A stretch of DNA of 60,035 nt. It comes from Parcubacteria group bacterium GW2011_GWA2_42_14 (GTDB lineage Bacteria > Patescibacteriota > Minisyncoccia > Sungbacterales > GWA2-42-14). Made by a program: the position numbers and the translations under genes. Location: contig LCCV01000009.1 in assembly GCA_000998135.1 (NCBI GenBank), positions 1-60,035 of the forward strand, given 5' to 3'. The notes beneath the pieces were generated by a model. That model was not told the origin of the DNA. It saw nothing but the letters and a program-made list of their open reading frames with translations, and made no database searches. This document shows, piece by piece, positions 7,075-60,035 of the stretch; within the stretch, counting starts at the first letter, position 1, and each line of letters opens with the position of its first letter.

Positions 7075-7111
<37 letters not shown>

Positions 7112-9416: not shown

Positions 9417-9467
<51 letters not shown>

Positions 9468-9498
9468 CTCCCAAGATTAGGTATCTCGCCCTCCCAAC

Positions 9499-10227: not shown

Positions 10228-10256
10228 TTTTATGTAATTGTTAAGTTTTAAAATTT

Positions 10257-10776: not shown

Positions 10777-10809
10777 TACAAAAAATTTTTAAAAACATGA
10801 TTCATTTAT

Positions 10810-10879
10810 ATTCCATGACGAATATCGTTAAAAGAGCCGTTCATAAAGACGGTGTCTTAACATTATTCGCCATGGAAAT
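10810..10879. repeat. imperfect palindrome after 5S
   Basis: attccatgacgaatatcgttaa ... ttaacattattcgccatggaaat. Confidence 0.6.
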
Positions 10880-11008
10880 TTTTACGTAAGAAGATTTATA
10901 TAATTTTATTTTTGCGCAATAATTCCCGTGGCTAACTAGTCACGGGAATTTAAATTTACCTCGAATTTGTCGGGGATATAGTTCTTTAACAAAAAAGGAG
11001 AGAAATAA

Positions 11009-11383: not shown

Positions 11384-11937
11384 AAGGCAAAAAAGTGCGG
11401 CTTCGGGCTATTGACCCCAAAAAAGACGCGGAACTTTTTATGGAGTGGATTAATGATTATGAGGTTGTAAGATTTCTTGGCGGCCCGTTTATGCCCCTTA
11501 CCAAAGATGAGGAACGCAAACGTCTTAAGGAACTTAAAGAAAGGAGAGATACTTTTAAAATATTTGCGGTTGAAACGCTTGACGGTGCGCTTATCGGTTC
11601 AATTTCTCTCATGAATATAAACCACCTTGATGGCACCGCCGTTACGGGCACGCTTATCGGCGATAAAGATTATTGGCGCAAGGGGTATGCGACTGACGCC
11701 AAGATGATACTGCTTTATTATGCCTTTCAGGTTCTTAATTTGCGGCGTATCTCAACGCGAATTATTGCCGATAATATCGGCAGCATCAGGGTTCAGGAAA
11801 AGTGCGGATATGAACGCGAAGGCATATGGAGAAAAGAAGTATATGCGGACGGCAAATACCGCGATATGGTTTTGATGGCGGTTTTTCGCGGAGGGTATAT
11901 GAAGTTGTGGCGCCAATATCAAAAAAAGAGCGAATGA
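11377..11937 (+). CDS. GNAT family N-acetyltransferase (RimJ/RimL-like)
   Basis: VRLRAIDPKKDAELFMEWINDYEV...WRKGYATDA...NIGSIRVQEKCGYEREG is a typical Acetyltransf_3 pattern. Confidence 0.75.
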   Translation: MLKGKKVRLRAIDPKKDAELFMEWINDYEVVRFLGGPFMPLTKDEERKRLKELKERRDTFKIFAVETLDGALIGSISLMNINHLDGTAVTGTLIGDKDYWRKGYATDAKMILLYYAFQVLNLRRISTRIIADNIGSIRVQEKCGYEREGIWRKEVYADGKYRDMVLMAVFRGGYMKLWRQYQKKSE

Positions 11938-11966
11938 TTTCGCTCTTTTTATTTACTTTTCCTTTT

Positions 11967-13121
11967 TTAAAGCAGTGTTTCTATCGACGTATATTCAAGG
12001 CCGAAAGTTTTGGCAAGGCCCGCTGAAGTTATCCTACCGTTATAAATTGATACCGCGCCTCTTAAGGCAGGGTTTTCTTTTAGTGCCCCGATGAACCCGA
12101 GTTTGATAATCTGCATCATGTAGGGAAAAACCGATTCGGAAAAAACCGGGGTGGAACGTTCGGAGACTCCGCCCGGAAAATTGGGAATGCCGATATATTT
12201 TATTCCTCGTTCAAGTTCTATTGCCGGATTTTCATGGGTAGTAACCCGTGAAAATTCACATGCTCCGCCTTGGTCAATAGAGGTATCCACTATTACCGAA
12301 TTATCCGGAATACTATTGCGCATTTCGTTTGTTATAATAATCGGGGCTTTATTTTCGGGAGCATACGGAGCAAGGTTTATTAGAAGCGGCTTATGATATT
12401 CTTCCGTTTCCATAAGTCTTTTAAGAAGTTGGGGAATTTCTTCCGGTGGACAGGTTAAAAATCCAAAAGGGGCCGGTGAGTCTTCATCTTTACGGCATAT
12501 TTCCGCATAATTTTTTATCTTTCTCATATCCGGATCTATGGCGGTAACGGATAGCCAAAAGCTTTTTTCGCTAAGCCAATGCGCGGCTTGCCCAACTGTT
12601 CCGTAACCAACAATAATCAATTCCGGTTTTGGGCCTGAAAAATATTTCATTCCGATTCTAATCCCTTCCTCGCCGGCGATTTTGCTCATTCCTGCCAGCA
12701 CCCGCCGCGAGCCGTCCGATTCTACAATATCTTCCAGCGAAAGATATGTGCCATTGCGTTCAATTACCAATTCCGTGAGTTCGCGATTGGAAGCCAGATG
12801 TCCAAAACTGATTATGGGTAAACATGGCTGTATAAAATAATATTCTTCAGGAAGCAATTCCTTTACCTTAAGCACGGCAAGTTGTCCGAAGCCGTGTTTA
12901 TCCGGCCGCATCAGCCGCCAAAATTCTTCTTTATCTTTTGGACGCGAAATAATTCGCGTCCCTCTCGCCCTATAAAATTCGTCAAAAAATCCGCTTTTTT
13001 CTCCGGCGCCTTTTTCCATATAAACTGCGGCCCCGGCATAGACAGCATCGTAAACATGATTGGGACACATAGGAAAACGACCCTCTCCGCACTTAATCTC
13101 TTTCGGCATAAAAATAACCAT
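11967..13121 (-). CDS. alanine dehydrogenase/PNT family NAD-binding enzyme
   Basis: PKEIKCGEGR...EKGAGEKSGFFDEFY, VLKVKELLPEEY, SFGHLASNRELTE and the Rossmann motif IIVGYGTVGQAA match the AlaDH family layout. The likely start is the ATG at 13109. Confidence 0.65.
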   Translation of the reverse strand: MVIFMPKEIKCGEGRFPMCPNHVYDAVYAGAAVYMEKGAGEKSGFFDEFYRARGTRIISRPKDKEEFWRLMRPDKHGFGQLAVLKVKELLPEEYYFIQPCLPIISFGHLASNRELTELVIERNGTYLSLEDIVESDGSRRVLAGMSKIAGEEGIRIGMKYFSGPKPELIIVGYGTVGQAAHWLSEKSFWLSVTAIDPDMRKIKNYAEICRKDEDSPAPFGFLTCPPEEIPQLLKRLMETEEYHKPLLINLAPYAPENKAPIIITNEMRNSIPDNSVIVDTSIDQGGACEFSRVTTHENPAIELERGIKYIGIPNFPGGVSERSTPVFSESVFPYMMQIIKLGFIGALKENPALRGAVSIYNGRITSAGLAKTFGLEYTSIETLL

Positions 13122-13250
13122 TTTTAAGCCCTTTTGTTAATGAGCAATCTTAAAACTGCTTATATTTTATAATAACCACTTGAATTGTCAATACTTTAGC
13201 AAAATGGATATTTATTGTATGATAAAGTTGGTTAAATTATTTTTAATTGC

Positions 13251-13335
13251 GGGTCATCCGTATCAGCGTTGTTTTAACGCGCTTTTCAGCGATTAATCAG
13301 CGGGGAACACCGCTTAAATAAAGCTGATTGAAACG
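13251..13335. repeat. periodic-word hairpin (CAGCG / CGCTG words)
   Basis: tatcagcgttg...tcagcgattaatcagcgggg aacaccgcttaaataaagctgattg. Confidence 0.6.
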
Positions 13336-13346
13336 TCAATAGGGCT

Positions 13347-14120
13347 ATGTTTTCCAACTTAGGGTATCGCGCCAGCCGACAATTTATTTTGCTTTTAATC
13401 CCTTTTACAATAGCGGCAATTTTGCTTTTATTCGGCTACTATAAATTACTGCCGGAACCAACATGTTCCGACCTTATCAAAAATCAAAACGAGGAAGAAG
13501 TTGACTGCGGCGGCCCGTGTAAAAGTTGCCTCTTCAAGCACATACAAGATATTCAAATTTTTTCTGTTAATTTTGATGAAGTTGTTACCGGTTCATATGA
13601 CGTAGTGGCTAAGGTAAAAAATCCCAATACACGGCTTTTAGCTAAAGAATTTTTTTATGAAATTACCCTAAAAGACGATAAGGGAGTAATAATGCAAAAA
13701 AGAACCGGCAGATCTTATTTATATGCCGGAGAAACTGCTCATATAATCGAGGGGAATATTCCGTCAAAGCGTAAAATTTATTTCGCGGAATTTTCCATAA
13801 ATAACAAGGAAGTTAACTGGATTCAGGGTGAAACAAAAAGGCCGGTATTTTTAAGCGGCGAAAAAATATCCGAGGTCGTAAGGGGCACAACCCGGTTAAA
13901 ATTGAAAATATTCAACCAATCACTTGCCGATTTTAAAAATATTGAAGTAGGCGCCATTATTACGAATGATAACGGAGATATTACGGCTATTAATAAAACG
14001 CTGATTGATTCGCTTAAGGCCGGAGATTTTGTCCCGTTTATTTTTATCTGGCCGGGAGAATTTATCATTAATACGGCAAATGTTTTGATTGAACCGAGAG
14101 TAAATTTGACAGCAGGATAA
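13347..14120 (+). CDS. membrane-anchored hypothetical protein with Cys-rich DCGGPCKSC motif
   Basis: N-terminal TM helix, then CSDLIKNQNEEEVDCGGPCKSC, then a beta-rich ectodomain. Confidence 0.5.
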   Translation: MFSNLGYRASRQFILLLIPFTIAAILLLFGYYKLLPEPTCSDLIKNQNEEEVDCGGPCKSCLFKHIQDIQIFSVNFDEVVTGSYDVVAKVKNPNTRLLAKEFFYEITLKDDKGVIMQKRTGRSYLYAGETAHIIEGNIPSKRKIYFAEFSINNKEVNWIQGETKRPVFLSGEKISEVVRGTTRLKLKIFNQSLADFKNIEVGAIITNDNGDITAINKTLIDSLKAGDFVPFIFIWPGEFIINTANVLIEPRVNLTAG

Positions 14121-14293
14121 TATGACCTAAATCATCATTTAAAATAGCATTATCATTAAACTTTTTATTATTTCCCGCATTGACCCATGAAAGCACCGGA
14201 TTATTCTAATTAACATCCGAATGTTCCGAATAGCAAATTATGGTTTGAGTAAAGAAATTTTTTGAAGGCACGCAATTTTTTAGAATAAAAAAT

Positions 14294-15388
14294 ATGTTTT
14301 CTTTATATTTTAAAAACATCGATTGGTTTTTATTCGGTTCAATGTTTTTTCTTATTGCCATTGGCCTGATTTCTTTATGGAGCCTTTCTATCGAGAATTA
14401 TACCCTTTTTTATAAACAATTAATTTGGCTGGCGCTCGGACTCGCGTTTTTTGCGGTAATTTCCTTTTTTGATTACAGGATTTTTAAAAACTACGGTGGC
14501 ATAATTCTCGGCTTATATTTTATTTCTGTTTTTTCCCTTATTTTACTTAATATATTCGGCATCAAAACAAGAGGAGTAACTGGCTGGTTCCGGTTGGAAG
14601 GTTTTGCAATTCAGCCGGTTGAATTTGTGAAAATAATACTCATAGTTCTTTTTGCGAAATATTTTTCCAAGAGGCACGTGGAAATTTATCATATCAGGCA
14701 TATCATTATTTCCGGCTTATATGTCTTACTGCCCACGGCATTAGTTATGCTCCAGCCTGATTTGGGCTCGGCCATGATACTTATTATTCTCTGGATTACC
14801 GTAACTCTTTTTTCCGGAATTAAAACAAAACATCTTTTATCACTATTAATTATTTTTTCTTTTATCGGCGTTTTAGGATGGACAACCCTTCTTAAGCCCT
14901 ATCAAAAAGAAAGAATCACATCTTTTATTAATCCGTATGCCGACCCAAGCGGCTCCGGTTATAATATAATTCAGTCGCTTATCGCAGTTGGTTCCGGTGG
15001 CGTCTGGGGAAAGGGAATAGGCCAGGGTCCGCAAAGCCATCTTTTATTTTTGCCGGAAGCGGAAACCGATTTCATCTTTGCCGCGTTCGCGGAAGAATGG
15101 GGATTTATGGGCAATTTGTTTTTATTATCATGCTTTCTTATTTTTCTTCTGCGGATTTTGAAAATAGGAAAAGAAGCGGAAAACAATTTTGCTAAAATTT
15201 TTGCCCTCGGCTTTGCCACCCTTGTTTTTTCCCAGTTACTGATTCATATCGGAGTAAATACGGGTTTACTGCCCATAACAGGCATCACTCTTCCTTTTGT
15301 AAGCTACGGCGGTTCAAGCCTGATTACTCTTATGGCGGGAGCGGGAATGGTGCAGGGCATTAAATTTCATTCGAGAAAAGAGGTATAA
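14294..15388 (+). CDS. SEDS family peptidoglycan glycosyltransferase (RodA/FtsW)
   Basis: About 10 TM segments with LQPDLGSAM, ETDFIFAAFAEEWGF and LPFVSYGGSS motifs. Confidence 0.85.
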   Translation: MFSLYFKNIDWFLFGSMFFLIAIGLISLWSLSIENYTLFYKQLIWLALGLAFFAVISFFDYRIFKNYGGIILGLYFISVFSLILLNIFGIKTRGVTGWFRLEGFAIQPVEFVKIILIVLFAKYFSKRHVEIYHIRHIIISGLYVLLPTALVMLQPDLGSAMILIILWITVTLFSGIKTKHLLSLLIIFSFIGVLGWTTLLKPYQKERITSFINPYADPSGSGYNIIQSLIAVGSGGVWGKGIGQGPQSHLLFLPEAETDFIFAAFAEEWGFMGNLFLLSCFLIFLLRILKIGKEAENNFAKIFALGFATLVFSQLLIHIGVNTGLLPITGITLPFVSYGGSSLITLMAGAGMVQGIKFHSRKEV

Positions 15389-15399
15389 TAGGATTAACT

Positions 15400-15455
15400 G
15401 AAACATGGAACATGGAACATAAACCATGATTCATGATTTATGATTCATGATTTAT
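15400..15455. repeat. periodic-word hairpin (CATGG / CATGA words) overlapping the rpiB start
   Basis: aacatggaacatggaacataaaccatgattcatgatttatgattcatgatttat. Confidence 0.65.
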
Positions 15456-15890
15456 CTTGCATCCGACCACGTCGGTTTTGAACTTAAAGAAAAACTGAAG
15501 ACATATCTTCAGGAACTTGGATACGGAGTGAAGGATTTTGGGGCTTTTAAATTTGATGCGGAAGATGATTATCCGGATTTTATTCGCAAAGCGGCCGAAG
15601 CCGTTGCTAATGACCCGGAGCAGGGTCAAGGGATTATTCTTGGCGGTTCTGGTCATGGGGAAGCCATGGTTGCCAATCGTTTTAAGAGAGTGAGGGCCGC
15701 GGTATACTATGGCGGTGATGAAAAAATAATTACTTTGTCGCGTGAGCATAATAACGCAAATGTGTTATCGCTTGGAGCGAGGTTTTTAACGGAAGAAGAA
15801 GCAAAAAAAGCGGTAAAATTATGGCTGGAAACGAAGTTTAATAATGAAGAAAGACATGTGAGGAGAATTCGTAAAATCGATGAATTATGA
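15447..15890 (+). CDS. rpiB: ribose-5-phosphate isomerase B
   Basis: LASDHVGFELKE...ILGGSGHGEAMVANR...NANVLSLGARF is the RpiB/LacAB family signature. Confidence 0.85.
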   Translation: MIYLASDHVGFELKEKLKTYLQELGYGVKDFGAFKFDAEDDYPDFIRKAAEAVANDPEQGQGIILGGSGHGEAMVANRFKRVRAAVYYGGDEKIITLSREHNNANVLSLGARFLTEEEAKKAVKLWLETKFNNEERHVRRIRKIDEL

Positions 15891-38038: not shown

Positions 38039-39019
38039 ATGACGTCACCAACGCAATTAAACGATGGAATTAACTATACTGCTTTGGTAACGCAGCATCC
38101 TTGGGTTACAGCAAGAGACCAAAAGTGTATTTTAAGCCCTGATAGTGATGGTCTGCTTTGTGGGTTGTTTATGTCATACTATTTGGATTGGAAAATTCAT
38201 GGTTTTTACGACGGAAAAATTCTTGCTGTAAAACAAGGGACCGATATTGAGGACTGTATTTTTTTAGACATGGAAATATTTCGTCCTAACATTCGCAGCG
38301 TTGGCCAACACATGGTTATGTATGACAAAAAGGATTTGCCTCCCAACTGGAATAATTTTAAGAAGTGTATCTCGGCAAATAATTTGAGAGATTACGATTT
38401 TAAAAATAATTTTAAACTCAAATATCCATTTGGAACAATTCATATTTTGCTTTCTATTTTGGGACAAAACAGGAATATCCCTATTCCCAAAAGCGCAATA
38501 AGCCCATTGTTGTATACGGATGGGACTTTCAAGAGCCAATTTAACTATCCAGAAAATTGCTTAAGCTGGCTAAATTTTTTAGGCGCGGGTAGTTCAAACA
38601 ACCCTCTTCAAAGGGTTTTTCTAAACAAGCACTATTCCACATATGAATTAATGGTAGAACTTAAAGATTTATTTTCAAAAATTAATGTCATTGGAGGAGG
38701 AAAGCGTGGCGGCGATAAAATAAAAATTTCCGATTCGCGCGGAAATATTGCAAATATTGATCCCCGGTCTCACCAGTTAAGGGTAGAGACAAAGACACAA
38801 GCTGAGAATTTTCTTGGAATGCTCGCGAACAAAACAGGATGGTCGTTTACGCCCTCACATTGGTCGTGGGGTCCATATAAGATTAATCGATTTAAGAAGG
38901 GTAGTATAAAACCAGGAAAGGCCCGTTATAACACCCTTCTCGCTCAAAACCCAATATCTCTCGCGATTATCAGCCGAAATAGTATCGAATACACTATAGA
39001 CGAAGGCGGAGTATTCTAA
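38039..39019 (+). CDS. hypothetical protein; candidate restriction-endonuclease partner of the adjacent methyltransferase
   Basis: 326-aa ORF with no motif I can assign. Its stop codon overlaps the stop codon of the convergent MTase gene (39016-39019). Acidic clusters ILSPDSDGLL and FLDMEIF could be catalytic. Confidence 0.35.
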   Translation: MTSPTQLNDGINYTALVTQHPWVTARDQKCILSPDSDGLLCGLFMSYYLDWKIHGFYDGKILAVKQGTDIEDCIFLDMEIFRPNIRSVGQHMVMYDKKDLPPNWNNFKKCISANNLRDYDFKNNFKLKYPFGTIHILLSILGQNRNIPIPKSAISPLLYTDGTFKSQFNYPENCLSWLNFLGAGSSNNPLQRVFLNKHYSTYELMVELKDLFSKINVIGGGKRGGDKIKISDSRGNIANIDPRSHQLRVETKTQAENFLGMLANKTGWSFTPSHWSWGPYKINRFKKGSIKPGKARYNTLLAQNPISLAIISRNSIEYTIDEGGVF

Positions 39020-40470
39020 AGTAATTTGCTTTGTGATGCCAGAATGCACTCTTCTTTCATGCGTTTTTCTGCAATTGCGCAATATTCTGGTGCAACATCA
39101 ATACCGATGTATTTATACCCAAGATTTTTTGCTGCGACAATTGTGGTTCCGCTTCCAACAAAAGGATCAAGTACCACTCCGTTTTTCGGCGCAAAACAAC
39201 TGATAAAATCATATGGGAGCTGATTTGGAAAAGTAGCGGGGTGTTGATGCTTAAGACGACTTCCATCGCCAGCCGTAAGATACTCCCAAATCGTTCCACG
39301 ACATTTCATTGGGTTAATTTTGATAGAACGAGTCGCTATTCGAACGCCATTTGTAAGACGAGTTCCACCTCCCGTCATGGTCTTGCCCCCATGTTTCGAG
39401 GGGATCTTTAGGTGCTCTTTATTGAAATATGTCGGCCTATCGCCTTTCAAAAATACAGGAATATACTCATGGTCTACACGAAATCGCTTGTTCCACCATG
39501 CCCCCTCTGCCCCATACTTTCGATAAATCACCGTTTCAAAAAGCTTGAAATTGAAACTATCACACCAATCAATAATCGTCCTAAACGAGGTTAAAGACTT
39601 CCCAAAATTTTTTGTCTGATCTTGAATTACCATTACGGCTACTCCGCCATCTTTGAGAACGCGATATATTTCTTTGCCTGCTGAATGTAAATCAAGAGAA
39701 AATCCCTTATAGTCACGAACACTATCATACGGCGGTGAAGTAACTACAATATCCACCGAATTTGAAGGGAATTTTTTCATTACTTCAACCGTATCCCCGC
39801 AAATAATTTTATTCAATGGCAATTCTTTATATTTTTCGCTTTCTTTATATTCAGGAAACTGGATTATTGATTTTGTTTCCTCCCGTATAACATCAAGAAC
39901 TATTCCTTGTATTGAAACATCCCGGCCGTTTCGAAAAATAAGCGGTTCCATAGTTTTGTTCGCCGGTTGTAGGCGGATATACCCCATCTCTTTATAGAAT
40001 TTTTTTAGTGTCGCTTCGTGGTTATTTATAAGGGCTACCACCTTTTGTCCGTTTTCGGCAGTTTCCTGTTGGCGCACTAAAACAACATCGCCGTCATTTA
40101 TATTTTCATCAATCATACTGTTTCCGACTACACGGAGAGCATAAACTTCTGAAGAAGAAGGAATTTTGCTTTTTGGAACGGCAATCATTTCTTTATCTTG
40201 AATTGCTTCAATGGGTTGCCCCGCCGCAATAGTTCCTAAAAGAGGAATTTTTATCATTGTCTCGCGGCCAAGCACCTCAATAGAACGAGGTTTATTTTCT
40301 TCTTTTGACAAATATCCTAAATCACGAAGTTTGGAAACATGAAAATGAGCCGTTGAGACCGATGAAAGTTTTAATTTCTTGCGTATCTCATGAAGTGAGG
40401 GGGCATATCCTTTTTGTTCTTGATAAGCGGTTATAAAATCAATCGCTTGTTTTTGCCTTTTTGTAATCAT
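39016..40470 (-). CDS. full-length LexA repressor fused to a beta-class (N4-C/N6-A) DNA methyltransferase
   Basis: N-terminal LexA wHTH (ITKRQKQAIDFITAYQEQKGYAPSLHEIRKKL..SSVSTAHFHVSKLRDLGYL), Ala-Gly cleavage site (GTIAAGQP), and S24 dyad (VVGNSM ... ATLKKF). The MTase part has motif IV VVTSPPYDS (39727-39741) placed before motif I LDPFVGSGTT (39146-39169). The start is set at MITKRQ (40470). Confidence 0.8.
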   Translation of the reverse strand: MITKRQKQAIDFITAYQEQKGYAPSLHEIRKKLKLSSVSTAHFHVSKLRDLGYLSKEENKPRSIEVLGRETMIKIPLLGTIAAGQPIEAIQDKEMIAVPKSKIPSSSEVYALRVVGNSMIDENINDGDVVLVRQQETAENGQKVVALINNHEATLKKFYKEMGYIRLQPANKTMEPLIFRNGRDVSIQGIVLDVIREETKSIIQFPEYKESEKYKELPLNKIICGDTVEVMKKFPSNSVDIVVTSPPYDSVRDYKGFSLDLHSAGKEIYRVLKDGGVAVMVIQDQTKNFGKSLTSFRTIIDWCDSFNFKLFETVIYRKYGAEGAWWNKRFRVDHEYIPVFLKGDRPTYFNKEHLKIPSKHGGKTMTGGGTRLTNGVRIATRSIKINPMKCRGTIWEYLTAGDGSRLKHQHPATFPNQLPYDFISCFAPKNGVVLDPFVGSGTTIVAAKNLGYKYIGIDVAPEYCAIAEKRMKEECILASQSKLL

Positions 40471-40476
40471 ACTGAT

Positions 40477-40504
40477 ATTATAGAAAATAAATCGAAAGTG
40501 TAAA
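40477..40504 (-). promoter_or_regulatory. promoter of the LexA-MTase gene; predicts a leaderless mRNA
   Basis: On the minus strand TTTACA, 16 nt, TATAAT, with the -10 ending 6 nt before the ATG. A perfect DnaA-box-like TTATCCACA lies at 40512-40520. Confidence 0.5.
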
Positions 40505-40596
40505 AGTAAAGTTATCCACAATATCCATGAGAGTAATGACTCCTATATCAAAAACGCGCGCTTTAAAAACGCGGGTTTTTGTTATATAATAGGTAA

Positions 40597-50652: not shown

Positions 50653-50656
50653 TGTT

Positions 50657-50731
50657 GCTCCTATCGTCTAGTCTGGTCCAGGACGCCAGGTTCTCATCCT
50701 GGTAACCCGGGTTCGAATCCCGGTGGGAGCA
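50657..50731 (+). tRNA. tRNA-Glu (anticodon CTC)
   Basis: gctccta/tgggagc acceptor, ccagg-ttctcat-cctgg anticodon arm, ccggg-ttcgaat-cccgg T arm. Confidence 0.9.
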
Positions 50732-50826
50732 TCAAATTGTTCGGAATGAACAAATATACAATGGCTCACAGCGGGAGTCGAAGGAAATGCCGGGGGCATT
50801 TCCGGGGATTTTTGCGAGAAGCAAAA

Positions 50827-50845
50827 TCGAATTCCGGTGGGAGCA
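50827..50845 (+). repeat. direct repeat of the tRNA-Glu 3' end (18/19 nt)
   Basis: tcgaattccggtgggagca compared with tcgaatcccggtgggagca at 50713-50731. It is preceded by the hairpin ggatttttgcgagaagcaaaatcgaatt, which also occurs downstream of tRNA-Tyr (37770-37798). Confidence 0.7.
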
Positions 50846-50850
50846 TAAAT

Positions 50851-50921
50851 ATTCAAAAACCAAGAATTAATGCTTGGTTTTTGAATAATAGCGTGATTTT
50901 AAAACATGACGTTCTTTCTTT
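50851..50921. repeat. left copy of about 70-bp inverted repeat bracketing the pseudopilin module
   Basis: attcaaaaaccaagaattaatgcttggtttttgaataatagcgtgattttaaaacatgacg is about 87 percent identical to the reverse complement of 55061-55131. Confidence 0.75.
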
Positions 50922-50964
50922 TTTGTGAAATCGATAAGATTGTGATATAGTTAAGGTAAACATT

Positions 50965-52860
50965 ATGAATCCTATATTTTCACAAAAAGGGTTTACCCCG
51001 TTACAACCGGACGCTCCATGCCTCCGGGCTAGGGAGGAAAGCGGAATCCCAAAAGTCAAAGAGATGCCATGGCCTTTAGGCCGGGTTGTAGCGGGGTTTA
51101 CCCTTATTGAATCGCTCGTGGGTGTTGCCGTATTTATGATTATAGCGGTAAGTGTTTATCAGGCCTATGCCGTAACCATGAATGCTGTTCGCGTCTCTCG
51201 CCTTAAAATTATTGCCACGGCATTAGCGAACGAACAATTTGAGATTATCCGCAATTTGCCGTACGACGACGTAGGCGTAGTCGGCAGCATTCCGAACGGA
51301 AAAATTCCCCGCATACAGAATTTTATCCGCGACAACACTGAATTCGCGGTGGAAACGACAATACGCAACATTGATGATCCTTTTGACGGCACCATAGGCG
51401 GAGTTCCTAATGATCTTTCTCCGTCTGATTACAGACTTGCGGAATTAGAGATTTCCTGCTCTTCTTGCAAAAATTTTACTGCACTCCGCCTTACTACCCA
51501 GGTGGGTCCGAGAGCCCTCGAGACCGCTTCAACAAACGGCGCTCTTTTCGTTCAGGTTTTTGATGCTTCGGGGCAGCCGGTATCCGGCGCCGACGTGCAT
51601 GTTGAAAACAATCAGGCCGTCCCGCCGATCGTGATAGACGACACTACCAATAACGATGGATTCCTCCAGATTGTTGATGCGCCTCCCGGAGCGGAGGCCT
51701 ACGAGATTGCCGTTTCAAAGTCAGGTTATTCAACTGAACAGACGTATCCCACCGGCGCGCCGGGCAATCCCAATCCGACTAAACCCCATGCGACCGTTGC
51801 ATTGCAGCAACTCACCCAAATCAGTTTTTCGATTGACAGGACAAGCACGCTTGATATCTCAAGCGTAACGAATACGTGCGGTCCGGTTTCGTCCATTGAT
51901 TTTTCGCTTTCGGGCTCCAAACTTATTGGCGCCAATCCGGATGTTTTAAAATACAGCGCCTCGCACATTACCGACGGCTTAGGCAAAAAAACAATATTTG
52001 GTCTTGAATGGGATACGTATAATTTGAATTTTACCGACAGTTCCTATGACCTTGCGGGAGCCGTTCCACTTTTACCCCTGGCGCTGAATCCTAATACCGG
52101 TCAGGACTTTAAGCTAATTGTCGCGCCGAAAGTTTCGAATGGCTTGCTTGTAACCGTCAAAGATGCTTCAACGCAACTCCCGCTATCTGACGCAATCGTA
52201 AGACTTGAAGGGTTGAGTTATGATACAACATTGACAACCGGCCACGGTTTTATCCGGCAAACCGATTGGTCCGGTGGGGCAGGGCAAGATGACTTTATTG
52301 ACCCAGCGCGATATTTTGATTCTGACGGGAATGCGGAAATTAATGATCCGGCCGGAGAATTCCATTTGAGAAAGATATTTGATGAATACGAACCTTCCGC
52401 GTATCTTATTTCTTCCGCGTTTGACACCGGCTCGGCCAGCAATTTCCATCAAATTTTGTGGCAACCGCAAAGTCAGCCGCCCGATACTGGGCAAGACAGC
52501 GTCAGATTTCAGATTGCCACCAACAACAACAAAATGACATGGAACTTTTTAGGGACGGACGGCACCGCAAATACCTATTACACTCTTGCCGACCAAAATA
52601 TCAACTCTTTGCATAACGGCGACCGATATCTTCGCTACAAAGCATTTTTGCAGACAGCAAGCACAACATGGACACCCACCATTTCTGACGTTTCATTTAC
52701 TTTTACCTCATCCTGCGTACCTCCGGGTCAAGTGCTTTTTACCGGACTTGGCACCGGCGACTACACCTTAACGGTCTCTAAAGCCGGATATCAGCCCTTT
52801 ACCGATACGGTCACTGTTTCTTCTTCATGGCAACAATATGGGGTTACTGTATCGCCATAA
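50965..52860 (+). CDS. large pseudopilin (prepilin-type N-terminal cleavage/methylation domain) with CarboxypepD_reg-like domains
   Basis: G|FTLIESLVGVAVFMIIAV prepilin signal. The probable true start is MPWPLGRVVAG at 51064. Beta-sandwich repeats are present (GQPVSGADVHVEN...AVSKSGYS and LTVSKAGYQPF). Confidence 0.75.
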   Translation: MNPIFSQKGFTPLQPDAPCLRAREESGIPKVKEMPWPLGRVVAGFTLIESLVGVAVFMIIAVSVYQAYAVTMNAVRVSRLKIIATALANEQFEIIRNLPYDDVGVVGSIPNGKIPRIQNFIRDNTEFAVETTIRNIDDPFDGTIGGVPNDLSPSDYRLAELEISCSSCKNFTALRLTTQVGPRALETASTNGALFVQVFDASGQPVSGADVHVENNQAVPPIVIDDTTNNDGFLQIVDAPPGAEAYEIAVSKSGYSTEQTYPTGAPGNPNPTKPHATVALQQLTQISFSIDRTSTLDISSVTNTCGPVSSIDFSLSGSKLIGANPDVLKYSASHITDGLGKKTIFGLEWDTYNLNFTDSSYDLAGAVPLLPLALNPNTGQDFKLIVAPKVSNGLLVTVKDASTQLPLSDAIVRLEGLSYDTTLTTGHGFIRQTDWSGGAGQDDFIDPARYFDSDGNAEINDPAGEFHLRKIFDEYEPSAYLISSAFDTGSASNFHQILWQPQSQPPDTGQDSVRFQIATNNNKMTWNFLGTDGTANTYYTLADQNINSLHNGDRYLRYKAFLQTASTTWTPTISDVSFTFTSSCVPPGQVLFTGLGTGDYTLTVSKAGYQPFTDTVTVSSSWQQYGVTVSP

Positions 52861-52969
52861 ACCCCGTTAGAAATCACGGACGTAAAAATATGATTTTATA
52901 CAAAAAGTCAGAAAAGAATAAGATGTGGTGCGCAATGTATTTTTGTCCGCGTCTTATTTCTAACGGGGT
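52861..52969. repeat. long imperfect palindrome between pilin genes
   Basis: accccgttagaaat (52861-52874) pairs with atttctaacggggt (52956-52969). The same ccccgttaga/tctaacgggg arms occur inside mpg at 746-772. Confidence 0.65.
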
Positions 52970-52975
52970 AAAATT

Positions 52976-53599
52976 ATGGATTTTTTAAAAAACAGCCGAA
53001 AATTAGAATCCGGTTTTTCCGTAATAGAAGTTCTGGCCAGCATATTTATACTAACTCTCATAGGACTCGCGGTCTATTCTTTTCAAAAAGACGTTTTTTT
53101 GCTCAATGGAATTATTTTTGGAAGTTTAACGGCGCAAGATGAAGCGCGCCGCGCGTTGAAAAGCATGAGCGCGGAAATACGCGCCGCTTCTCCTTCAAGC
53201 ATTGGCGCTTATGCCCTCTCGCAAACAACCGCATCATCATTTACTTTTTACAGCAACATAGACAGCGATTTTTTTAAGGAGCGGGTGAGGTATTTTTTGG
53301 ACGGCGCGACTCTCAAAAAAGGCGTTATTAAACCTTCCGGATCACCGCTCACATATAATCCGGCAAACGAAATCCTATCCGAGTTGATACACAATATTGC
53401 GGGCGCCGCCACATCAACCTTCAGTTACTACGATGAAAATTACGATGGCACGACTCAAGCGCTCGCTGAACCAATAGACATAGCTATCGTGCGGCTTATA
53501 AAAATTACTATTGTGATTGACAAAAATCCACAAGCACTACCCGGACCCGTGACGTTTACAACACAAATTTCAATAAGAAATCTAAAAGACAACCTATGA
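52976..53599 (+). CDS. pseudopilin (prepilin-type N-terminal domain)
   Basis: ESG|FSVIEVLASIFILTLIGLAVYSF. Confidence 0.75.
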   Translation: MDFLKNSRKLESGFSVIEVLASIFILTLIGLAVYSFQKDVFLLNGIIFGSLTAQDEARRALKSMSAEIRAASPSSIGAYALSQTTASSFTFYSNIDSDFFKERVRYFLDGATLKKGVIKPSGSPLTYNPANEILSELIHNIAGAATSTFSYYDENYDGTTQALAEPIDIAIVRLIKITIVIDKNPQALPGPVTFTTQISIRNLKDNL

Positions 53600-55059
53600 T
53601 GACTCATTATTCAATTAAAAAAATAACAGAATTCATGAAATCCAGGAAAGGACAAATATTAATCCAGGTTATTGTTTTTGGGTCAATTGCCATTTACCTT
53701 TTGAGCACATTGGTAAGTTGGGCCTCATTAAACATCAAGGCCGGACGGCAGGCATTCAATCGCGAGAGATCCCTGCAAATTGCGGAAGCGGGTATTGATT
53801 ACTACCGATGGCATCTTGCGCACTCGCCCACAGATTTTCAAGACGGAACCGGAGGCCCCGGGCCGTACGTTCACGATTTTCGCGACAAAGACGGAAATAT
53901 CATCGGCCAATTTTCTCTGGATATCATACCGCCGCCGTTAGGCTCTACTTTAGCAACGGTGAAATCTACGGGAAGCATAATCGGAGATACAGCGCTTCTG
54001 CGTAAAATCGCGGTGCAATTTGCCAAACCTTCAATTGCAAAATACGCCGTTGCCGCCAATGCCGCCATGAGGTTTGGTTCGGGAACGGAAGTGTTTGGAC
54101 CGATCCATTCCAATGGAGGAATCCGTTTTGATGCTCTTGCGCATAATATTGTTACCAGCGCCGTTGCCTCATACGACGACCCCGATCATTCGGGAGCCAA
54201 TGAATTCGGCGTGCATACGCACGTTGCGCCAACCGACCCCTTGCCGCCTTCTCCTGTTCCCACGAGAACAGATGTTTTTGAAGTTGGCAGGCAATTCCCC
54301 GTACCCGCTTTGGATTTCGCCGGAATTACCGCTGACCTTGCCGAGATGAAAACAGACGCCCAGGCAAACGGTTTTTATCGCCCGAGCGCGGGAGCGCTTG
54401 GATACCATATTGTTTTGAGGACGGACGACACATTTGACCTTTATCGCGTAACGAGTTTGGTAAATCCGCCATCCGGATGTACGAACCCGGGCCAGTCCGG
54501 TTGGGGCACTTGGAGTATTCAAAACCAACAACTCGTCGGAAATTATCCATTTCCGGCAAACGGCATCATCTTTCTTGAAGACGATATTTTCGTTGACGGA
54601 CAAATCAACGGCGGCCGTCTTACAATCGTTGCCGCTTTTTTGCCGGATAATCCACCGTTTCGAAAAAACATCATTGTCAATAATGATCTTTTATACACTA
54701 ATTATGACGGTTCCGACATTCTCGGTCTTATTGCGCAAGGTAATGTTACTGTCGGCTTGGTAAGCGAAGATGACTTGAGGATTGACGCCGCGCTTATTGC
54801 TCAAAACGGCCGCGTAGGAAGATATTATTATCGTCCACCCGGCGGCGGTTCACAGCGCTGTTCTCCTAATCATGTGCGGCAGACCATAACGCTTTGGGGC
54901 ATGATTGCGACTAACCAGCGATATGGTTTTGCGTACACAGATGGGACAGGATACCAGATACGCAATCTTAATTATGACGGAAGTTTGCTTTACGGACCGC
55001 CGCCGAGCTTTCCTTTGACATCTGATCAATATATAACTCTCACTTGGGGAGAAGAATAA
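53596..55059 (+). CDS. PilX-like pilus assembly / minor pilin protein
   Basis: The hydrophobic N-terminus GQILIQVIVFGSIAIYLL followed by RSLQIAEAGIDYYRW resembles PilX_N. It overlaps the upstream gene in an ATGA arrangement. Confidence 0.55.
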   Translation: MMTHYSIKKITEFMKSRKGQILIQVIVFGSIAIYLLSTLVSWASLNIKAGRQAFNRERSLQIAEAGIDYYRWHLAHSPTDFQDGTGGPGPYVHDFRDKDGNIIGQFSLDIIPPPLGSTLATVKSTGSIIGDTALLRKIAVQFAKPSIAKYAVAANAAMRFGSGTEVFGPIHSNGGIRFDALAHNIVTSAVASYDDPDHSGANEFGVHTHVAPTDPLPPSPVPTRTDVFEVGRQFPVPALDFAGITADLAEMKTDAQANGFYRPSAGALGYHIVLRTDDTFDLYRVTSLVNPPSGCTNPGQSGWGTWSIQNQQLVGNYPFPANGIIFLEDDIFVDGQINGGRLTIVAAFLPDNPPFRKNIIVNNDLLYTNYDGSDILGLIAQGNVTVGLVSEDDLRIDAALIAQNGRVGRYYYRPPGGGSQRCSPNHVRQTITLWGMIATNQRYGFAYTDGTGYQIRNLNYDGSLLYGPPPSFPLTSDQYITLTWGEE

Positions 55060-55060
55060 C

Positions 55061-55131
55061 CGCCGTGTTCTAAAATCACACTATTATTAAAAAACCAAGT
55101 ATTAATGCTTGGTTTTTGAATTAATTATCCA
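55061..55131. repeat. right copy of about 70-bp inverted repeat bracketing the pseudopilin module
   Basis: cgccgtgttctaaaatcacactattattaaaaaaccaagtattaatgcttggtttttgaat. Confidence 0.75.
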
Positions 55132-55256
55132 CATTCGCATTGCAGTCCGAACCAAAGAGCATTAAAATATAGTAAGTGGCTATTATTTTTAAATTAAACC
55201 GAATTAGGCCGGTTTTCAAACCGCCTTTTTTGGGTTAATAAAAATTCCATAAAATA

Positions 55257-58200
55257 ATGAAAAAAAAGGCTCTTTTTATTTCTATATTCTTTATTTTAGG
55301 TTTTGCGGTTCAATATTCTTACGCCGCCGCTCCGGTAATTCTTAGTTCTCCTGCCCCACAGGCGATAAATGTTATCAGCCCCGGAGCGCAAATAACCTGG
55401 TCAACCGATGTTCTTTCTGATTCGCAGGTATATTATGGAACGTCAAATACTTCGACGAGCTTTCCGTATTATTCATCCGGCCGATGCGATAGCGGGGGAA
55501 ACGTAACTTCTCACTGCGTAAACTTAACCCTTCTTTCAACGGGCGTGACTTATTATTTTAAAGTTAAGTCCTGCAATACTGACGGCTGTATTGAAGGAAG
55601 TGGTTATCAATTCACTACCACAAGCGGATCTTCTTCTGGAGGAAGCGGGGGTGGCAGTTCATCCACTTCCTGCCCCTCAAACATTGCTTCTTTACTCGGC
55701 TCCGGCTGCCATGACATGGGAAACGCCTACTTTAACAGCGCTATGGACCAATATGTGAATTACAACGGTTCTACTGTGTATTATTGCGGTACCAATTATA
55801 TTTCAGGATGCGCTACTGGGGGCGGAGGAAGTAATCCGCCAGGATCTCCTTATCTTTCCCTACCAGGCTCTTCAGCCAGCCCAATATATCTTTCTTGGAC
55901 AACTGTATCTGGCGCCACCTCGTATGAGGTCTGGCGAAGAACTCCTCCAAGTACCGGCACATTCACATCTATAACCACCGGCCTGACCGGACTTTCATAC
56001 AATGATTCCGGTGTAACTTCCGGCACTTCATATGAATACTACATCAAGGCCTGTAATGCTTACGGATGTTCTTCTTCAAATTACGCGACTATTTCCGTAA
56101 GCGGAGGCACTTCTTCAGATACGACTCCGCCGTCTGCTCCGGCAAATTTTTCAACTTATGCCAACTCATCAAGCCAGGTTACTCTTACCTGGGCGGCTTC
56201 TACTGATAACATCGGCGTTACCGGATATAAAATATTTAAAAATAATTCTTATCTGACCACTACCGCAGCGCTTTATTATTATGATTATGGAGTATCGCCC
56301 AGTACCGCCTATTCATACTATGTCAAAGCGGCGGACGCCGCCGGCAACGAATCCTCGCCAAGCCTGACGGCTTACGCTACCACGCCGTCAACAAGCACCA
56401 CAACCGCATCAACTTCCTGTTCAAGTACGGTTGTTTCTTTATTGGGTTCCGGTTGCCATGATATGGGCAATGCCTATTTCAACGGAGAAATGACGCAATA
56501 TGTGTATTACAACGGTTCAACTGTGTACTACTGCAACACCACTTACATTTCCGGATGCACTACTGTAGGAGGAGGCAATATACCAACATCACCAAGCAGT
56601 CTTAGGCAAATATCTTCTACCCAAAACTCAATTTCTCTTGCCTGGTATGACAATTCTTCCGGTGAAGATAAATTTAACTTGGAAAGAACCGTAAACAATA
56701 CAAGCTCATGGACGCTGGTAAGCCAGCTTGGAGCAAATATTATAAACTACACCGACACTGCCGTTACCGCGGGAACTTATTACGATTATAGAATTCAGGC
56801 CTGCCTTTCCGGTTATGGCTGTTCAGGATATGCCTATTTATACGGTGTATCAACTTCTGCTTCAACAGCAACCTCAACCCCGAGCGACGTAACTCTTCCC
56901 GGCATAATTTCCAATCTTTCTGCCAATAATCCAACATCAAATTCCGTAACTCTTTCCTGGACTGCTACGGGAGATGACGGAACAACCGGTACTGCTTATT
57001 CATATTCCGTAAAATATTCTACTGCTCCCATAACGACTGAGAGCGCGTGGCAGACGGCTTATTATGTAACTTCCGGAGTTCCTGTTCCGTATCCTGCCGG
57101 CACCAGCCAGACCATGGTCGTATCAGGACTTAGCCCCAACACAACATATTATTTTGCGATCAAGGCGTATGATGATGCGGGCAATATTTCCCCGTTGTCA
57201 AATTCTCCGCCAGGCAAAATTCTTTCCGGTACTGTTGCCACAACAACGGTTGATATGTCTCCGCCTTATGTCACGACCTTCGGCTTTCAAACCGAAGGCG
57301 ACGGCCGTATAAGGGCAGGAGCGATGTTCTCGGAATCGATAGACGAATCAACCCTTACCGATTCCAATGTTTATATAATCTTATCAGGCGCCGGAACCAA
57401 AATAGCCGGCACTATAACCAAATTCACTGCGGAAAAAGGCGTTGGTTATCTTACTTCGACACCCGCAAGCGCCGGAACCGACTATCAATTGGTAATAAAA
57501 AAGAATATTAATGACCTTGCCGGAAACCAAATGGCGCTTGATTATATTTCCCAAAAATTTCAGGCAAGCTTCGGAGGAATAAGTACATCTACGCCTCCGA
57601 CCAATATAACACAGACGGAAACTCCCAAACTCGTAAATTGGGGGTTAAGCGTCGGTACTGACGGCAATTCAACAATAGGACTGTCATTCAATGTGGAGAT
57701 GGATTACGCGACATTCAATGATTCAAGCGCCTATATTTATAAATCATCCGACCCCTCTTTACACCTGCCAGTAACTTTCCAAAAAAGGCCTTATCATGCG
57801 ATGTTTGTCTTAAAACTTACTCCCGGAATCGAATACGTCAGCGTGGTTAAATCAAGCGTAAAAAGCCTGAATGGGTTGAGTTTAGGAACTGATTATATCT
57901 GCAAGTTTGTGGCCTTGACTAGCGGTTATATCACCTCCTGTCCTCAAGAATCTATCAGTTCCGGACTGCCGACAATTTCTCCGGAAGTATCAATAAAATA
58001 CGGAATTCTTGAGGCCCAGGTTCTGGATTCTGAAGAAAAACCCGTGGACAAGGCAGGCGTTCATATTTTTAAAGAAGATTTTAGCTCCAATTTCGGAGGA
58101 ACGAGTGATGCCAGCGGATTATTTAAAAATAGCATTCAGCCGGGAATATATTATATAGAAGTTTTTCCTCCAACCGGAAGAACTGATTTGATTAAGCCGG

Positions 58201-60035
58201 AACCGGTAAAATTCGAAATATTGGGTGGAGAAACGAAAAAACTTATTATTCGGTTCGGCATTCTTAGTAAAACTATTACCGGCACCGTACTTTTTTCCAA
58301 CGACGCATCGGTTGCCGATGCCGAAGTCGGGGCTTATTCGAGTGCTAAAAACCAATGGGTAAGCGCTTTTACCGATTCCAGCGGGCGATATACCATGAAA
58401 GTCGGTAGCGGAAAATGGACAGTAGGAATAAGGCCAAGAGATCCGGCGGGAGCCAAATGGTCATGGTCCGGCCCCTTTCAGGAGGTTGTATTTACCGTAA
58501 ATCCCGGGCAGGAATTGATACTTATAAATTTCAGAATCCCCGTTTCCAACTCAAAAATAATTATTAAAGCGGTTGATGATTTGGGCAATCCGATTGAAAA
58601 TGCCGGGATCATTGCCAATACCATCAGCTCCTCCCAATCATATTCCGAATCAAAAACATCTCCGGAATTCAGAAAAACCGATGCCCGGGGAAAGGCCGAA
58701 TTCTCTTTAGCTCCGGCCCTATACTATATAAGAGGGGTTATAGATATAGAGCGCGGTTACCTTAATTCGGAAGAACAGCCGGTTCAAATTACCAAGGACG
58801 AAATCAGGGAAATGCGTTTGGTATTCAAGAGACGAAGCATTGTTGAAACTTTAGAATTATCCGGTTTATCCAGGATGGAAAATGGCTCTCCCTTAGACGC
58901 TTATATCTGGTCTTGGTCCGAGACGGGCAAATTTTTTGAAACCCGGGCAAATGAAAACGGAAAATTCAACGTTAAACTTGCTAAAGGAGAAAAATGGCAT
59001 ATTGGCGCGGGCAAGGTTTTAAACGGCATTTCTTATAAAGCGGATGATATTGTTATTGATCCGGAAAACCAAAATATTTCTCTTGAAATAATCTTGTTCA
59101 AACAAGCGGAATTGGCCCCGCCGGTAACGGTAGCTCAATCGGCAACTCAACAGGTTGTCGTGCAAACTCAGGACGGCGCTAAAACCGTAATTCCCTCGGG
59201 AGCGGTTTCAGGAGGAGCCACCATAAATGTGGAATTAAAGCCAACCACGGAAGCTCCGTCGCAGGCCGGCGCCCAGATTGTGGGTACCGCTTATGACATC
59301 AACATAACTGATGCGGCAGGCAAAGCCATAACTAAATTAACAAAAGATGCGGAAATAATTATTCCTTACGCGGAGGAAGAACTTAAAGCAAAAGGCATTA
59401 ATGAAGACAGGCTTATTCCAAGCTTCTTTGACGCCTCTCTGGCTGCCTGGCTGAAAATTGACAACTATACTATTGATAAAGAAAAAAATGTTGTAATTAT
59501 TCGCGTAAACCATTTGACAAGATTTGCCATAGTTGCGGCCGCCGATATAACCCCGCCGGACGCTCCTTCCAATGTAAAAATTTCGGCGTTGACAGAGGGC
59601 AAAGTTAAAATTTCCTGGGTTAATCCGGCCAAAGATTTTCATCACGTAAAAATATACCGCTCGGAAGCAAATGGTGAATCAGGAACCGTTGTTTTAAATG
59701 ACCTTACAGGGGACTCAACCACAGACAGCGGCCTGTCGGGAGGAAAAACTTATTATTACCTTTTGCGCTCCATTGACCCGGCCGGAAACGAATCAAACAA
59801 TACTGAACAAACTAAAATAGCTTTAGCAGGTATTGCGGCTAAACCGCAAGTCCAGCCGGAAACAAAAAAGCTTCCTCCGGGAATTGCCGTAAAACTGCAA
59901 ATACTGCGAAACCTTTCTGCCGGTTTCCAGGGAGACGACGTCAAAGCCATTCAGGAACTTTTGCTGAAAGAAGGGGTTTATCCGGAAGGATTAATTACCG
60001 GATTTTTCGGCAATCTTACCAAACAGGCAGTTATT
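55257..60035 (+). CDS. giant secreted surface protein (more than 1593 aa, 3' end outside window): Fn3 repeats, Ig-like/CarboxypepD_reg-like domains, start of a PG_binding_1 domain
   Basis: Hand-translated and absent from the ORF track, probably because there is no stop before the window end. It has the signal peptide MKKKALFISIFFILGFAVQYSYA. At least six Fn3-like units are seen (LSWTTVSGATSYEVWRR, VTLTWAASTDNIGVTGYKIFKN, ISLAWYDNSSGEDKFNLERT, VTLSWTATGDDG, KISWVNPAKDFHHVKIYRS). The end reads GDDVKAIQELLLKEGVYPEGLITGFFGNLTKQAV. Confidence 0.85.
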   Translation, partial: MKKKALFISIFFILGFAVQYSYAAAPVILSSPAPQAINVISPGAQITWSTDVLSDSQVYYGTSNTSTSFPYYSSGRCDSGGNVTSHCVNLTLLSTGVTYYFKVKSCNTDGCIEGSGYQFTTTSGSSSGGSGGGSSSTSCPSNIASLLGSGCHDMGNAYFNSAMDQYVNYNGSTVYYCGTNYISGCATGGGGSNPPGSPYLSLPGSSASPIYLSWTTVSGATSYEVWRRTPPSTGTFTSITTGLTGLSYNDSGVTSGTSYEYYIKACNAYGCSSSNYATISVSGGTSSDTTPPSAPANFSTYANSSSQVTLTWAASTDNIGVTGYKIFKNNSYLTTTAALYYYDYGVSPSTAYSYYVKAADAAGNESSPSLTAYATTPSTSTTTASTSCSSTVVSLLGSGCHDMGNAYFNGEMTQYVYYNGSTVYYCNTTYISGCTTVGGGNIPTSPSSLRQISSTQNSISLAWYDNSSGEDKFNLERTVNNTSSWTLVSQLGANIINYTDTAVTAGTYYDYRIQACLSGYGCSGYAYLYGVSTSASTATSTPSDVTLPGIISNLSANNPTSNSVTLSWTATGDDGTTGTAYSYSVKYSTAPITTESAWQTAYYVTSGVPVPYPAGTSQTMVVSGLSPNTTYYFAIKAYDDAGNISPLSNSPPGKILSGTVATTTVDMSPPYVTTFGFQTEGDGRIRAGAMFSESIDESTLTDSNVYIILSGAGTKIAGTITKFTAEKGVGYLTSTPASAGTDYQLVIKKNINDLAGNQMALDYISQKFQASFGGISTSTPPTNITQTETPKLVNWGLSVGTDGNSTIGLSFNVEMDYATFNDSSAYIYKSSDPSLHLPVTFQKRPYHAMFVLKLTPGIEYVSVVKSSVKSLNGLSLGTDYICKFVALTSGYITSCPQESISSGLPTISPEVSIKYGILEAQVLDSEEKPVDKAGVHIFKEDFSSNFGGTSDASGLFKNSIQPGIYYIEVFPPTGRTDLIKPEPVKFEILGGETKKLIIRFGILSKTITGTVLFSNDASVADAEVGAYSSAKNQWVSAFTDSSGRYTMKVGSGKWTVGIRPRDPAGAKWSWSGPFQEVVFTVNPGQELILINFRIPVSNSKIIIKAVDDLGNPIENAGIIANTISSSQSYSESKTSPEFRKTDARGKAEFSLAPALYYIRGVIDIERGYLNSEEQPVQITKDEIREMRLVFKRRSIVETLELSGLSRMENGSPLDAYIWSWSETGKFFETRANENGKFNVKLAKGEKWHIGAGKVLNGISYKADDIVIDPENQNISLEIILFKQAELAPPVTVAQSATQQVVVQTQDGAKTVIPSGAVSGGATINVELKPTTEAPSQAGAQIVGTAYDINITDAAGKAITKLTKDAEIIIPYAEEELKAKGINEDRLIPSFFDASLAAWLKIDNYTIDKEKNVVIIRVNHLTRFAIVAAADITPPDAPSNVKISALTEGKVKISWVNPAKDFHHVKIYRSEANGESGTVVLNDLTGDSTTDSGLSGGKTYYYLLRSIDPAGNESNNTEQTKIALAGIAAKPQVQPETKKLPPGIAVKLQILRNLSAGFQGDDVKAIQELLLKEGVYPEGLITGFFGNLTKQAVI

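Follow-up and report, generated by a model that had tools for sequence, protein, structure and literature searches.

This study concerns a 60,035-nt stretch of DNA from the ultrasmall groundwater bacterium Parcubacteria group bacterium GW2011_GWA2_42_14 (contig LCCV01000009.1, positions 1 to 60,035; hereafter the window), in which a three-gene pseudopilin operon is bracketed by a pair of inverted repeats. An inverted-repeat bracket was found around the same operon in five other Parcubacteria lineages. With moderate confidence, the two arms are read as duplicates of a single boundary element, which belongs to a very old and strongly constrained operon; the pair is taken to be inherited, conserved and, in this genome, static. 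The bracket of the window looks like a fixed and partly eroded copy of the architecture of the clade.

Inverted repeats around the pseudopilin operon

A repeat search of the 60-kb window returned a left arm at 50851-50920 and a right arm at 55052-55121, each of 70 nt, 86% complementary and 4131 nt apart. Local alignment widened the pair to about 76 nt (50845-50920 and 55052-55128) with 10 mismatches and one gap. The divergence between the arms is 14%, and their longest perfect run is about 14 nt. An earlier note, written from the sequence without database searches, had proposed inverted repeats of about 70 bp around a three-gene module, and this pair, unique in the window, bears it out; its right arm, placed at 55061-55131, was about 9 nt off, as the arm starts inside gene 3 at 55052. 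The arms enclose exactly the three open reading frames (ORFs) of the operon listed in Table 1, again as proposed. They avoid coding sequence apart from the last codons of gene 3.

Each arm combines a hairpin with an asymmetric extension. At its end, the core of the left arm (50884-50920) carries the stop region of gene 3 in inverted and degenerate form. In the right arm, the TAA stop of gene 3 itself (55057-55059) lies within the repeat and is followed, after a 25-nt spacer, by an A/T-rich palindromic, terminator-like hairpin. The 60-kb window has exactly two copies of the hairpin AAAAACCAAG-N8-CTTGGTTTTT and two of the extension AATAATAGYGTGATTTTARAACA, as compared to zero expected from shuffled sequence. 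The extension lies on the 3' side of the hairpin in the left arm and on its 5' side in the right arm. The arms are thus in opposite orientation, which confirms the orientation argument of the earlier note. According to that note, the same hairpin and extension at many unrelated gene ends would have indicated a common terminator family. A search of the window and a further 5 kb yielded no other copy of either, the two known copies being those at the ends of the operon.

The left arm lies between a tRNA-Glu gene and the operon's own promoter. As described earlier, the module follows a duplication of the tRNA-Glu 3' end (50827-50849) and precedes a giant adhesin-like gene (from 55257). No direct repeat resembling a target-site duplication was seen in the arm flanks of the window or of the relatives L019 and L025, and an Rfam search of the window, L018, L019 and L025 returned no family matching the arms.

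The orientation of the operon was compared among six same-species contigs from different samples in the ENA (L001-L004, L038 and L039), which are 99.8-100% identical to the window across the region. The left arm is unchanged in all six and the right arm is present in five, L039 stopping before it. The arm sequences do not vary among the contigs, and the operon has one orientation throughout. The source samples are represented by the ENA assemblies ERZ28564302 (SAMN03202995), ERZ28563660, ERZ27254759, ERZ27254836, ERZ4903125 and ERZ27254842. A search of JGI contigs for the pattern of the inverted junction gave 0 matches; as that collection lacks this organism and offered no positive control, the result is not counted as evidence.

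Recurrence and evolution of the bracket

The context of the operon was compared in eleven other lineages. The three genes are intact in all eleven, with different neighbouring genes each time, and in five of these lineages the operon is enclosed by inverted repeats with arms of 36 to ~420 nt (Table 1). L030 shows a weaker inverted pair of 49 nt, and L028 has a long arm downstream of the operon and no recombinase. In each of the five bracketed loci, as in the window, 37-44 nt separate the inner edge of the left arm from the ATG of gene 1 downstream. This edge consists of the inverted end of gene 3 (GAAGAATAA plus CCGCC-like bases), and the right arm always begins in those last codons. The extension seen in the window is matched by the core of the L033 left arm at the same distance from the ATG, and a core GTGATTTTARAACA..GGTTA is common to all four arms of the window and L033. 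Judged from these alignments, the repeat in the window is the local form of an ancestral architecture, and the bracket is inherited and not an accident.

Within a genome, the long arms of the relatives are 92-100% identical; between L018, L025 and L028, the identity is only 83-88%. Segments are shuffled between the arms: one hairpin allele, for example, occupies the left arm in L025 but the right arm in L028. Between L019 and L020, two strains of one species, an 88-nt indel is confined to one arm. These patterns suggest concerted evolution of the long arms, which would require physical recombination between them. The arms also appear to be under constraint, changing several times more slowly than synonymous sites: L018 and L025 differ by ~17% in the arms and by 53% at four-fold sites of gene 3, and L025 and L028 by 12-13% and 21%, respectively. 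One long-arm hairpin is preserved via compensatory substitutions, and the homology between L018, L025 and L028 starts sharply at a common outer boundary, GTGYSTTTAYT.

The operon itself is well conserved. Gene 3 has thousands of homologues (more than 4000) at 70-90% identity, and its protein is 83-94% identical to those of the relatives compared; gene 1 reaches 80-87% identity to its closest clusters. Differences at four-fold sites of gene 3 amount to 0.36-0.67 between most lineages and are near saturation, and the protein identity therefore reflects long and strong purifying selection. Genes 1 and 3 are unusually constrained for pilus components. A recent horizontal spread of the operon had been suggested by the identities of gene 3 (77-90% across many lineages) as compared to those of a Mur ligase (only three close clusters above 63% identity) and a neighbouring LTD protein (29% identical), and was withdrawn on the four-fold-site values. 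No relative of gene 3 was found in viral contigs.

Two of the comparisons involve contigs with unusual joins. L032 was rejected as a right-arm-only case, as its identity to the window is only ~80-88% as far as window position 54578 but 100% beyond it (from 54579). The contig may be an assembly chimera that joins two co-occurring species within gene 3, or else it is a true recombinant (compared over 51093-57357 of the window). No empty site was seen in the relatives, the apparent case in L032 being this mosaic or chimeric contig. The operon of L034 is 99.98% identical to that of L033, and on its left side stands an inverted DUF192-RNR-TPR block (1-6700 vs 10862-15791). The block shares 72% nucleotide identity with its right-hand counterpart, and its join is situated ~30 nt upstream of tRNA-Ser; the arrangement was set aside as, in all probability, a chimera or a rearrangement without connection to the arms. 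The contigs L036 and L037 break at the same point as the L034 join, which is either a chimera or a structural polymorphism at tRNA-Ser.

Table 1 Positions of the arms, the operon and adjoining features in the window, and of the arms in five bracketed relatives
Feature	Position	Strand	Description
tRNA-Glu(ctc)	50656..50733	+	co-directional with the operon
114-nt unit	50736..50849	+	23-nt copy of the tRNA-Glu 3' end at its end; GC-rich terminator-like hairpin at 50783-50803; abuts left arm
Left arm	50845..50920		palindromic hairpin 50850-50887, then asymmetric core 50884-50920
Promoter-like site TTGTGA-17-TATAGT	50923..50951	+	TG before the -10 box; between left arm and gene 1, inside the bracket
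Gene 1, large pseudopilin, 631 aa	50965..52860	+	GFTLIE motif; sub-threshold N_methyl match; CarboxypepD_reg and PEGA domains
Gene 2, small pseudopilin, 207 aa	52976..53599	+	sub-threshold N_methyl match
Gene 3, 487 aa	53596..55059	+	hydrophobic N-terminal helix; highly conserved across Parcubacteria
Right arm	55052..55128		last codons and TAA of gene 3 55052-55059, conserved core 55060-55088, hairpin 55085-55121
Second terminator-like hairpin with T-run	55210..55223	+	between right arm and giant ORF
Giant adhesin-like ORF	55257..60035	+	fn3, Big_5, CarboxypepD_reg and PG_binding_1 domains; runs past the window end
L018 arms	4270-4539 / 8429-8698		270 nt, 99%; contig ends within arm
L019 arms	4231-4527 / 8527-8823		297 nt, 96% (273 nt at 99% by BLAST), plus inner 30 nt
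L020 arms	1-99 / 3993-4091		99 nt, 100%
L025 arms	4127-4536 / 8464-8882		423 nt, 93%
L033 arms	6921-6956 / 10855-10889		36 nt, 89%

Boundary element, invertible segment or mobile cassette

The hairpins are predicted to fold on both strands at -15 to -23 kcal/mol with z-scores of -2 to -5. The predicted stems of 10-15 pairs have flanking A and U tracts on both strands and are sited after tRNA-Glu and after gene 3, so that fold and position both provide the stem-loop and U-tract at the end of a transcription unit that characterize an intrinsic terminator. Under the explanation favoured here, an ancient inverted duplication of the operon 3' end would have given rise to the two arms. In the long-armed genomes, these would be kept alike by arm-to-arm gene conversion, possibly with occasional flip-flop inversion, and by selection on the hairpins. 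Their everyday role, as read from shape, would be to insulate the operon with terminators facing inwards and outwards: the left hairpin would halt read-through from the tRNA, and the right hairpin would end the operon transcript and block antisense transcription from downstream.

The same hairpin shape is found in ordinary terminators of unrelated bacteria, where a pattern scan of genome (GTDB) and metagenome (JGI) contigs, collections that do not include this organism, returned near-identical hairpins as single copies. This likeness to a generic bidirectional terminator would be expected if a dispersed terminator family, or one resembling repetitive extragenic palindromic (REP) sequences or miniature inverted-repeat transposable elements (MITEs), lay at both ends of the operon by chance. 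The genome does have small inverted-repeat insertions (50992-51100 and 52861-52969, see below), and a 41-nt GC hairpin from the relatives' long arms occurs at two separate sites in L023. Such a coincidence is nevertheless considered very improbable, given that there are only two copies in 60 kb plus 5 kb, that the shared part includes the asymmetric inverted copy of the gene 3 stop region, and that the left-arm inner edge takes the same position in six lineages, unlike independent insertions. Bidirectional intrinsic terminators share with the window arms the A-tract, the 10-15-bp stem, the 4-8-nt loop and the T-tract, here in copies after the tRNA and after the operon. They differ in that the window copies have 25-35 nt of asymmetric flank in common, including the last codons of gene 3, and this flank argues for common descent of the two copies rather than convergence. 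MITEs and Correia-like elements are likewise small intergenic inverted-repeat elements and possible terminators, whereas the window arms are non-dispersed within the 60 kb plus 5 kb, lack a target-site duplication and jointly bracket genes rather than being self-contained.

A further possibility is that the operon is an active invertible segment. A recombinase encoded elsewhere would then recognise the ~30-nt core and flip the 4.2-kb operon, so that its transcription would read either into the giant adhesin gene or antisense to tRNA-Glu/GH15, resulting in phase variation of surface structures. Known invertible switches include fimS/FimBE, Hin/Gin/Cin/Pin, the Bacteroides invertons, the Moraxella piv pilin inversion and the R64 shufflon. 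As in these systems, inverted repeats flank pilus or surface-structure genes in the window, at positions conserved among relatives. The core is present in both arms of the window and of L033, the homogenised long arms of the relatives imply physical arm-to-arm recombination, and a large serine recombinase gene adjoins the bracket in L019, L020 and L025. Still, we regard active inversion as unlikely. The bracket holds a whole operon together with its promoter-like box, which would move with the genes; inversion would thus not silence the operon, and it would bring no promoter uncoupling, no swap of coding ends and no obvious ON/OFF or coding change. Two terminator-like hairpins stand between gene 3 and the adhesin gene. 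The same-species assemblies agree on orientation, and the relatives' arms of up to ~420 nt far exceed recombinase sites.

The earlier note had recommended looking for a nearby invertase or recombinase. None was found: no sizeable ORF of the 60-kb window, or of the annotated 10 kb downstream in near-identical contigs, matched a recombinase, integrase or transposase family. The arms of the window would be too short and too divergent to support homologous recombination, and no dedicated recombinase was detected, hence the segment is probably fixed in one orientation here. The suggestion of an invertible segment or of cassette ends is partly supported: it holds for the existence of a specific, conserved bracket and finds no support for activity in this genome, in view of the single orientation, the internal promoter and the lack of a detected recombinase and of a target-site duplication.

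The recombinase genes of the relatives were examined for a link to the arms. In L019, L020 and L025, a gene encoding a large serine recombinase of 517-564 aa with Resolvase, Recombinase and Zn_ribbon_recom domains follows the right arm. In NCBIfam, CcrB, XisF, CcrC and CcrA match it best, each with a score far below cut-off (CcrB, 133 vs 900 bits). The gene has its own inverted repeats of 107-159 nt (92-100% identical; those of 148-159 nt, 99-100%), the distal arm overlapping the 3' part of the gene. No core common to these repeats and the operon arms rose above shuffle background, which also speaks against inversion of the operon by this enzyme. The recombinase units span 8821-13555 in L019, 8879-10753 in L025 and 4383-6283 in L020. 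On the outer side they directly adjoin the 3' end of a tRNA gene, which is Arg-tct in L020 and Leu-caa in L025. Two recombinase units stand in tandem in L019, and behind them lie a LOOT RNA and a reverse-transcriptase ORF.

Six lineages have a tRNA gene close to an end of the unit, and the identity of this tRNA mostly differs between them. It is upstream and co-directional in the window (Glu), L018 (Arg) and L033 (Ser), and downstream and convergent in L030 (Arg), L020 (Arg) and L025 (Leu). The orientation of the operon relative to these neighbours is constant: co-directional with the upstream tRNA in 3/3 cases, and convergent with the downstream tRNA or co-directional with the recombinase in 4/4, a regularity that disfavours inversion. 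Conversely, the recurrent tRNAs could reflect a mobile, non-autonomous pseudopilin cassette that was placed beside tRNAs by the CcrB/XisF-like recombinase, acting in cis (L019, L025) or in trans, and that has lost the recombinase here, its ends now eroding. The terminal inverted repeats of the window, the sharp outer boundary shared by L018, L025 and L028, the different flanking genes in every lineage, the tRNA-Glu 3'-end repeat abutting the left arm, and the match of the adjacent recombinase to cassette-chromosome recombinase families in two species would all fit such a cassette.

Nonetheless, a mobile origin is judged doubtful. The near-saturated synonymous sites of gene 3 indicate an operon that is old and vertically constrained rather than recently spread, and the operon context varies also in lineages without arms. 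No target-site duplication, empty site or copy in viral contigs was found. Direct repeats of the att type do not occur at both ends: both copies of the tRNA-Glu 3' end lie to the left of the left arm, 114 nt apart. A comparison with the staphylococcal cassette chromosome (SCC)/Ccr cassettes and the XisF excision elements leads to a similar picture. An inverted-repeat-ended cassette beside a conserved gene 3' end (here a tRNA) and, in L019 and L025, an adjoining recombinase matching CcrB/XisF/CcrC/CcrA are points of likeness. The differences are the matches far below cut-offs, the lack of bracketing direct repeats, inverted repeats of the recombinase unit that are unrelated to the operon arms, and the lack of a serine recombinase in or beside the element in the window, a feature seen only in L019, L020 and L025.

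The bracket also resembles large inverted repeats under concerted evolution, such as plastid inverted repeats and inverted rRNA operons, with regard to the homogenised arms, mosaic exchange and boundary shifts in the relatives. Those of the present family measure tens to hundreds of nt around a 4-kb operon, and the window arms are only 86% alike, so that homogenisation has stopped or is rare. Several observations weigh against the boundary-element reading. The terminator and insulator roles are deduced from hairpin shape only, and insulation alone leaves unexplained why 25-35 nt of asymmetric sequence, including the inverted stop-codon region, should persist ahead of the promoter over such deep divergence. 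Neither arm of L033, the nearest armed relative, has the outer 45 nt seen in the two window arms (the hairpin plus AATAATAG). The hairpin part is specific to the lineage of the window, and some arm-to-arm exchange or parallel insertion must have taken place there after the split. Furthermore, the left arm is absent in L021, L023, L029 (which has a remnant) and the left part of L032, with the operon present, so the bracket is dispensable. Lastly, assemblies show the majority orientation only, and a minority flipped population may exist.

Genes around the arms and biological meaning

The N_methyl matches of genes 1 and 2, read as pseudopilins, score 19.9 bits, below the cut-off of 21.2 bits. Gene 1 also gives weak GspI, GspJ and ComGE matches, and the GFTLIESLVGVAVFMII motif is visible in its sequence; for gene 3, no Pfam or NCBIfam family was matched. 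A TGnTATAAT box matching the promoter-like site upstream of gene 1 is found at the equivalent place in L018, L019, L025, L029 and L032.

Gene 1 of the window contains a 105-nt (35-codon) in-frame insertion at 50992-51100, right after the KGF of the prepilin motif (MNPIFSQKGF|TPLQ...VAGF|TLIESL), whereas gene 1 of all relatives reads ...QKGFTLIE without interruption. The insert has 14-nt terminal inverted repeats, ACCCCGTTACAACC and GGTTGTAGCGGGGT, and a flanking direct repeat, GGGTTTACCC. It extends the leader to 45 aa, or it may provide an internal ATG (MPWPLGRVVAG|FTLIE). A second element of 109 nt (52861-52969) fills the gap between genes 1 and 2, which is only 5-20 nt long in most relatives; its 31-nt inverted ends are 74% complementary and start with the same ACCCCGTTA motif. 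Together, the two look like a small MITE-like family, and both are present in all same-species contigs.

To the left of the bracket, the last 23 nt of tRNA-Glu are duplicated directly against the left arm, within the 114-nt trailer unit of Table 1. The unit is single in the window, L002, L003, L038 and L039, and occurs as two tandem copies in L001 (7029-7254) and L004 (1370-1595). It is an att-like repeat whose copy number varies between strains (window region 50713-50849). Further upstream, L001-L004 have 108 nt extra at window position 49519, which contain the 3' end of GH15 along with a terminator (hairpin plus T-run); this is either a deletion in the window that alters the GH15 C-terminus or an assembly difference. 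To the right, the giant adhesin-like gene encodes 1735 aa in L001. It is a single 1735-aa ORF in L001 (11662-16869) and L002, and was called as two (273 aa and 1333 aa) in L004 (6003-11210). Its 3' part has an internal repeat, 59930-60035 of the window matching a second site 213 nt downstream of the collinear position.

Further genes of the window include a dcw cluster and additional housekeeping functions. Among named organisms, its Mur ligase is closest to Sungbacteria (56-59% identity), which places the organism in the Parcubacteria of the candidate phyla radiation (CPR)/Patescibacteria. The 23S rRNA match (2525-10777 region) spans 4.8 kb as compared to the 2.9-kb model and so contains insertions; shortly downstream of the annotated match, and ahead of the 5S rRNA (10658-10777), come a LAGLIDADG ORF (7837-8382) and a GIY-YIG ORF (9502-9804). 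On the - strand, a single 501-aa ORF (39016-40521) joins LexA DNA-binding, Peptidase_S24 and N6_N4 DNA methylase domains in an unusual fusion.

Type IV pili are the main means of host contact and DNA uptake in CPR/Patescibacteria. Inverted repeats around surface genes are known in kind, and no description of inverted-repeat-bracketed pilin operons in CPR bacteria was found in the literature. What is new is a constrained operon with an internal promoter, concerted arms of up to 420 nt, and recurrence across Parcubacteria. For this genome, the conclusion is modest, as nothing shows flipping or movement of the bracket. On the level of the Parcubacteria, the recurrent bracket points either to a regulatory or insulating architecture that has gone unrecognised or to a system that rearranges DNA at pilus genes. 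A more far-reaching variant, which we consider improbable, is a clade-wide, operon-scale recombination cassette: the minor-pilin operon would be flipped or exchanged via its arms, the arms would be kept identical thereby, and in some genomes the process would be served by the adjacent CcrB/XisF-like recombinase on its own invertible unit. If true, this would represent an undescribed route by which episymbiotic ultrasmall bacteria vary or swap their host-contact pili.

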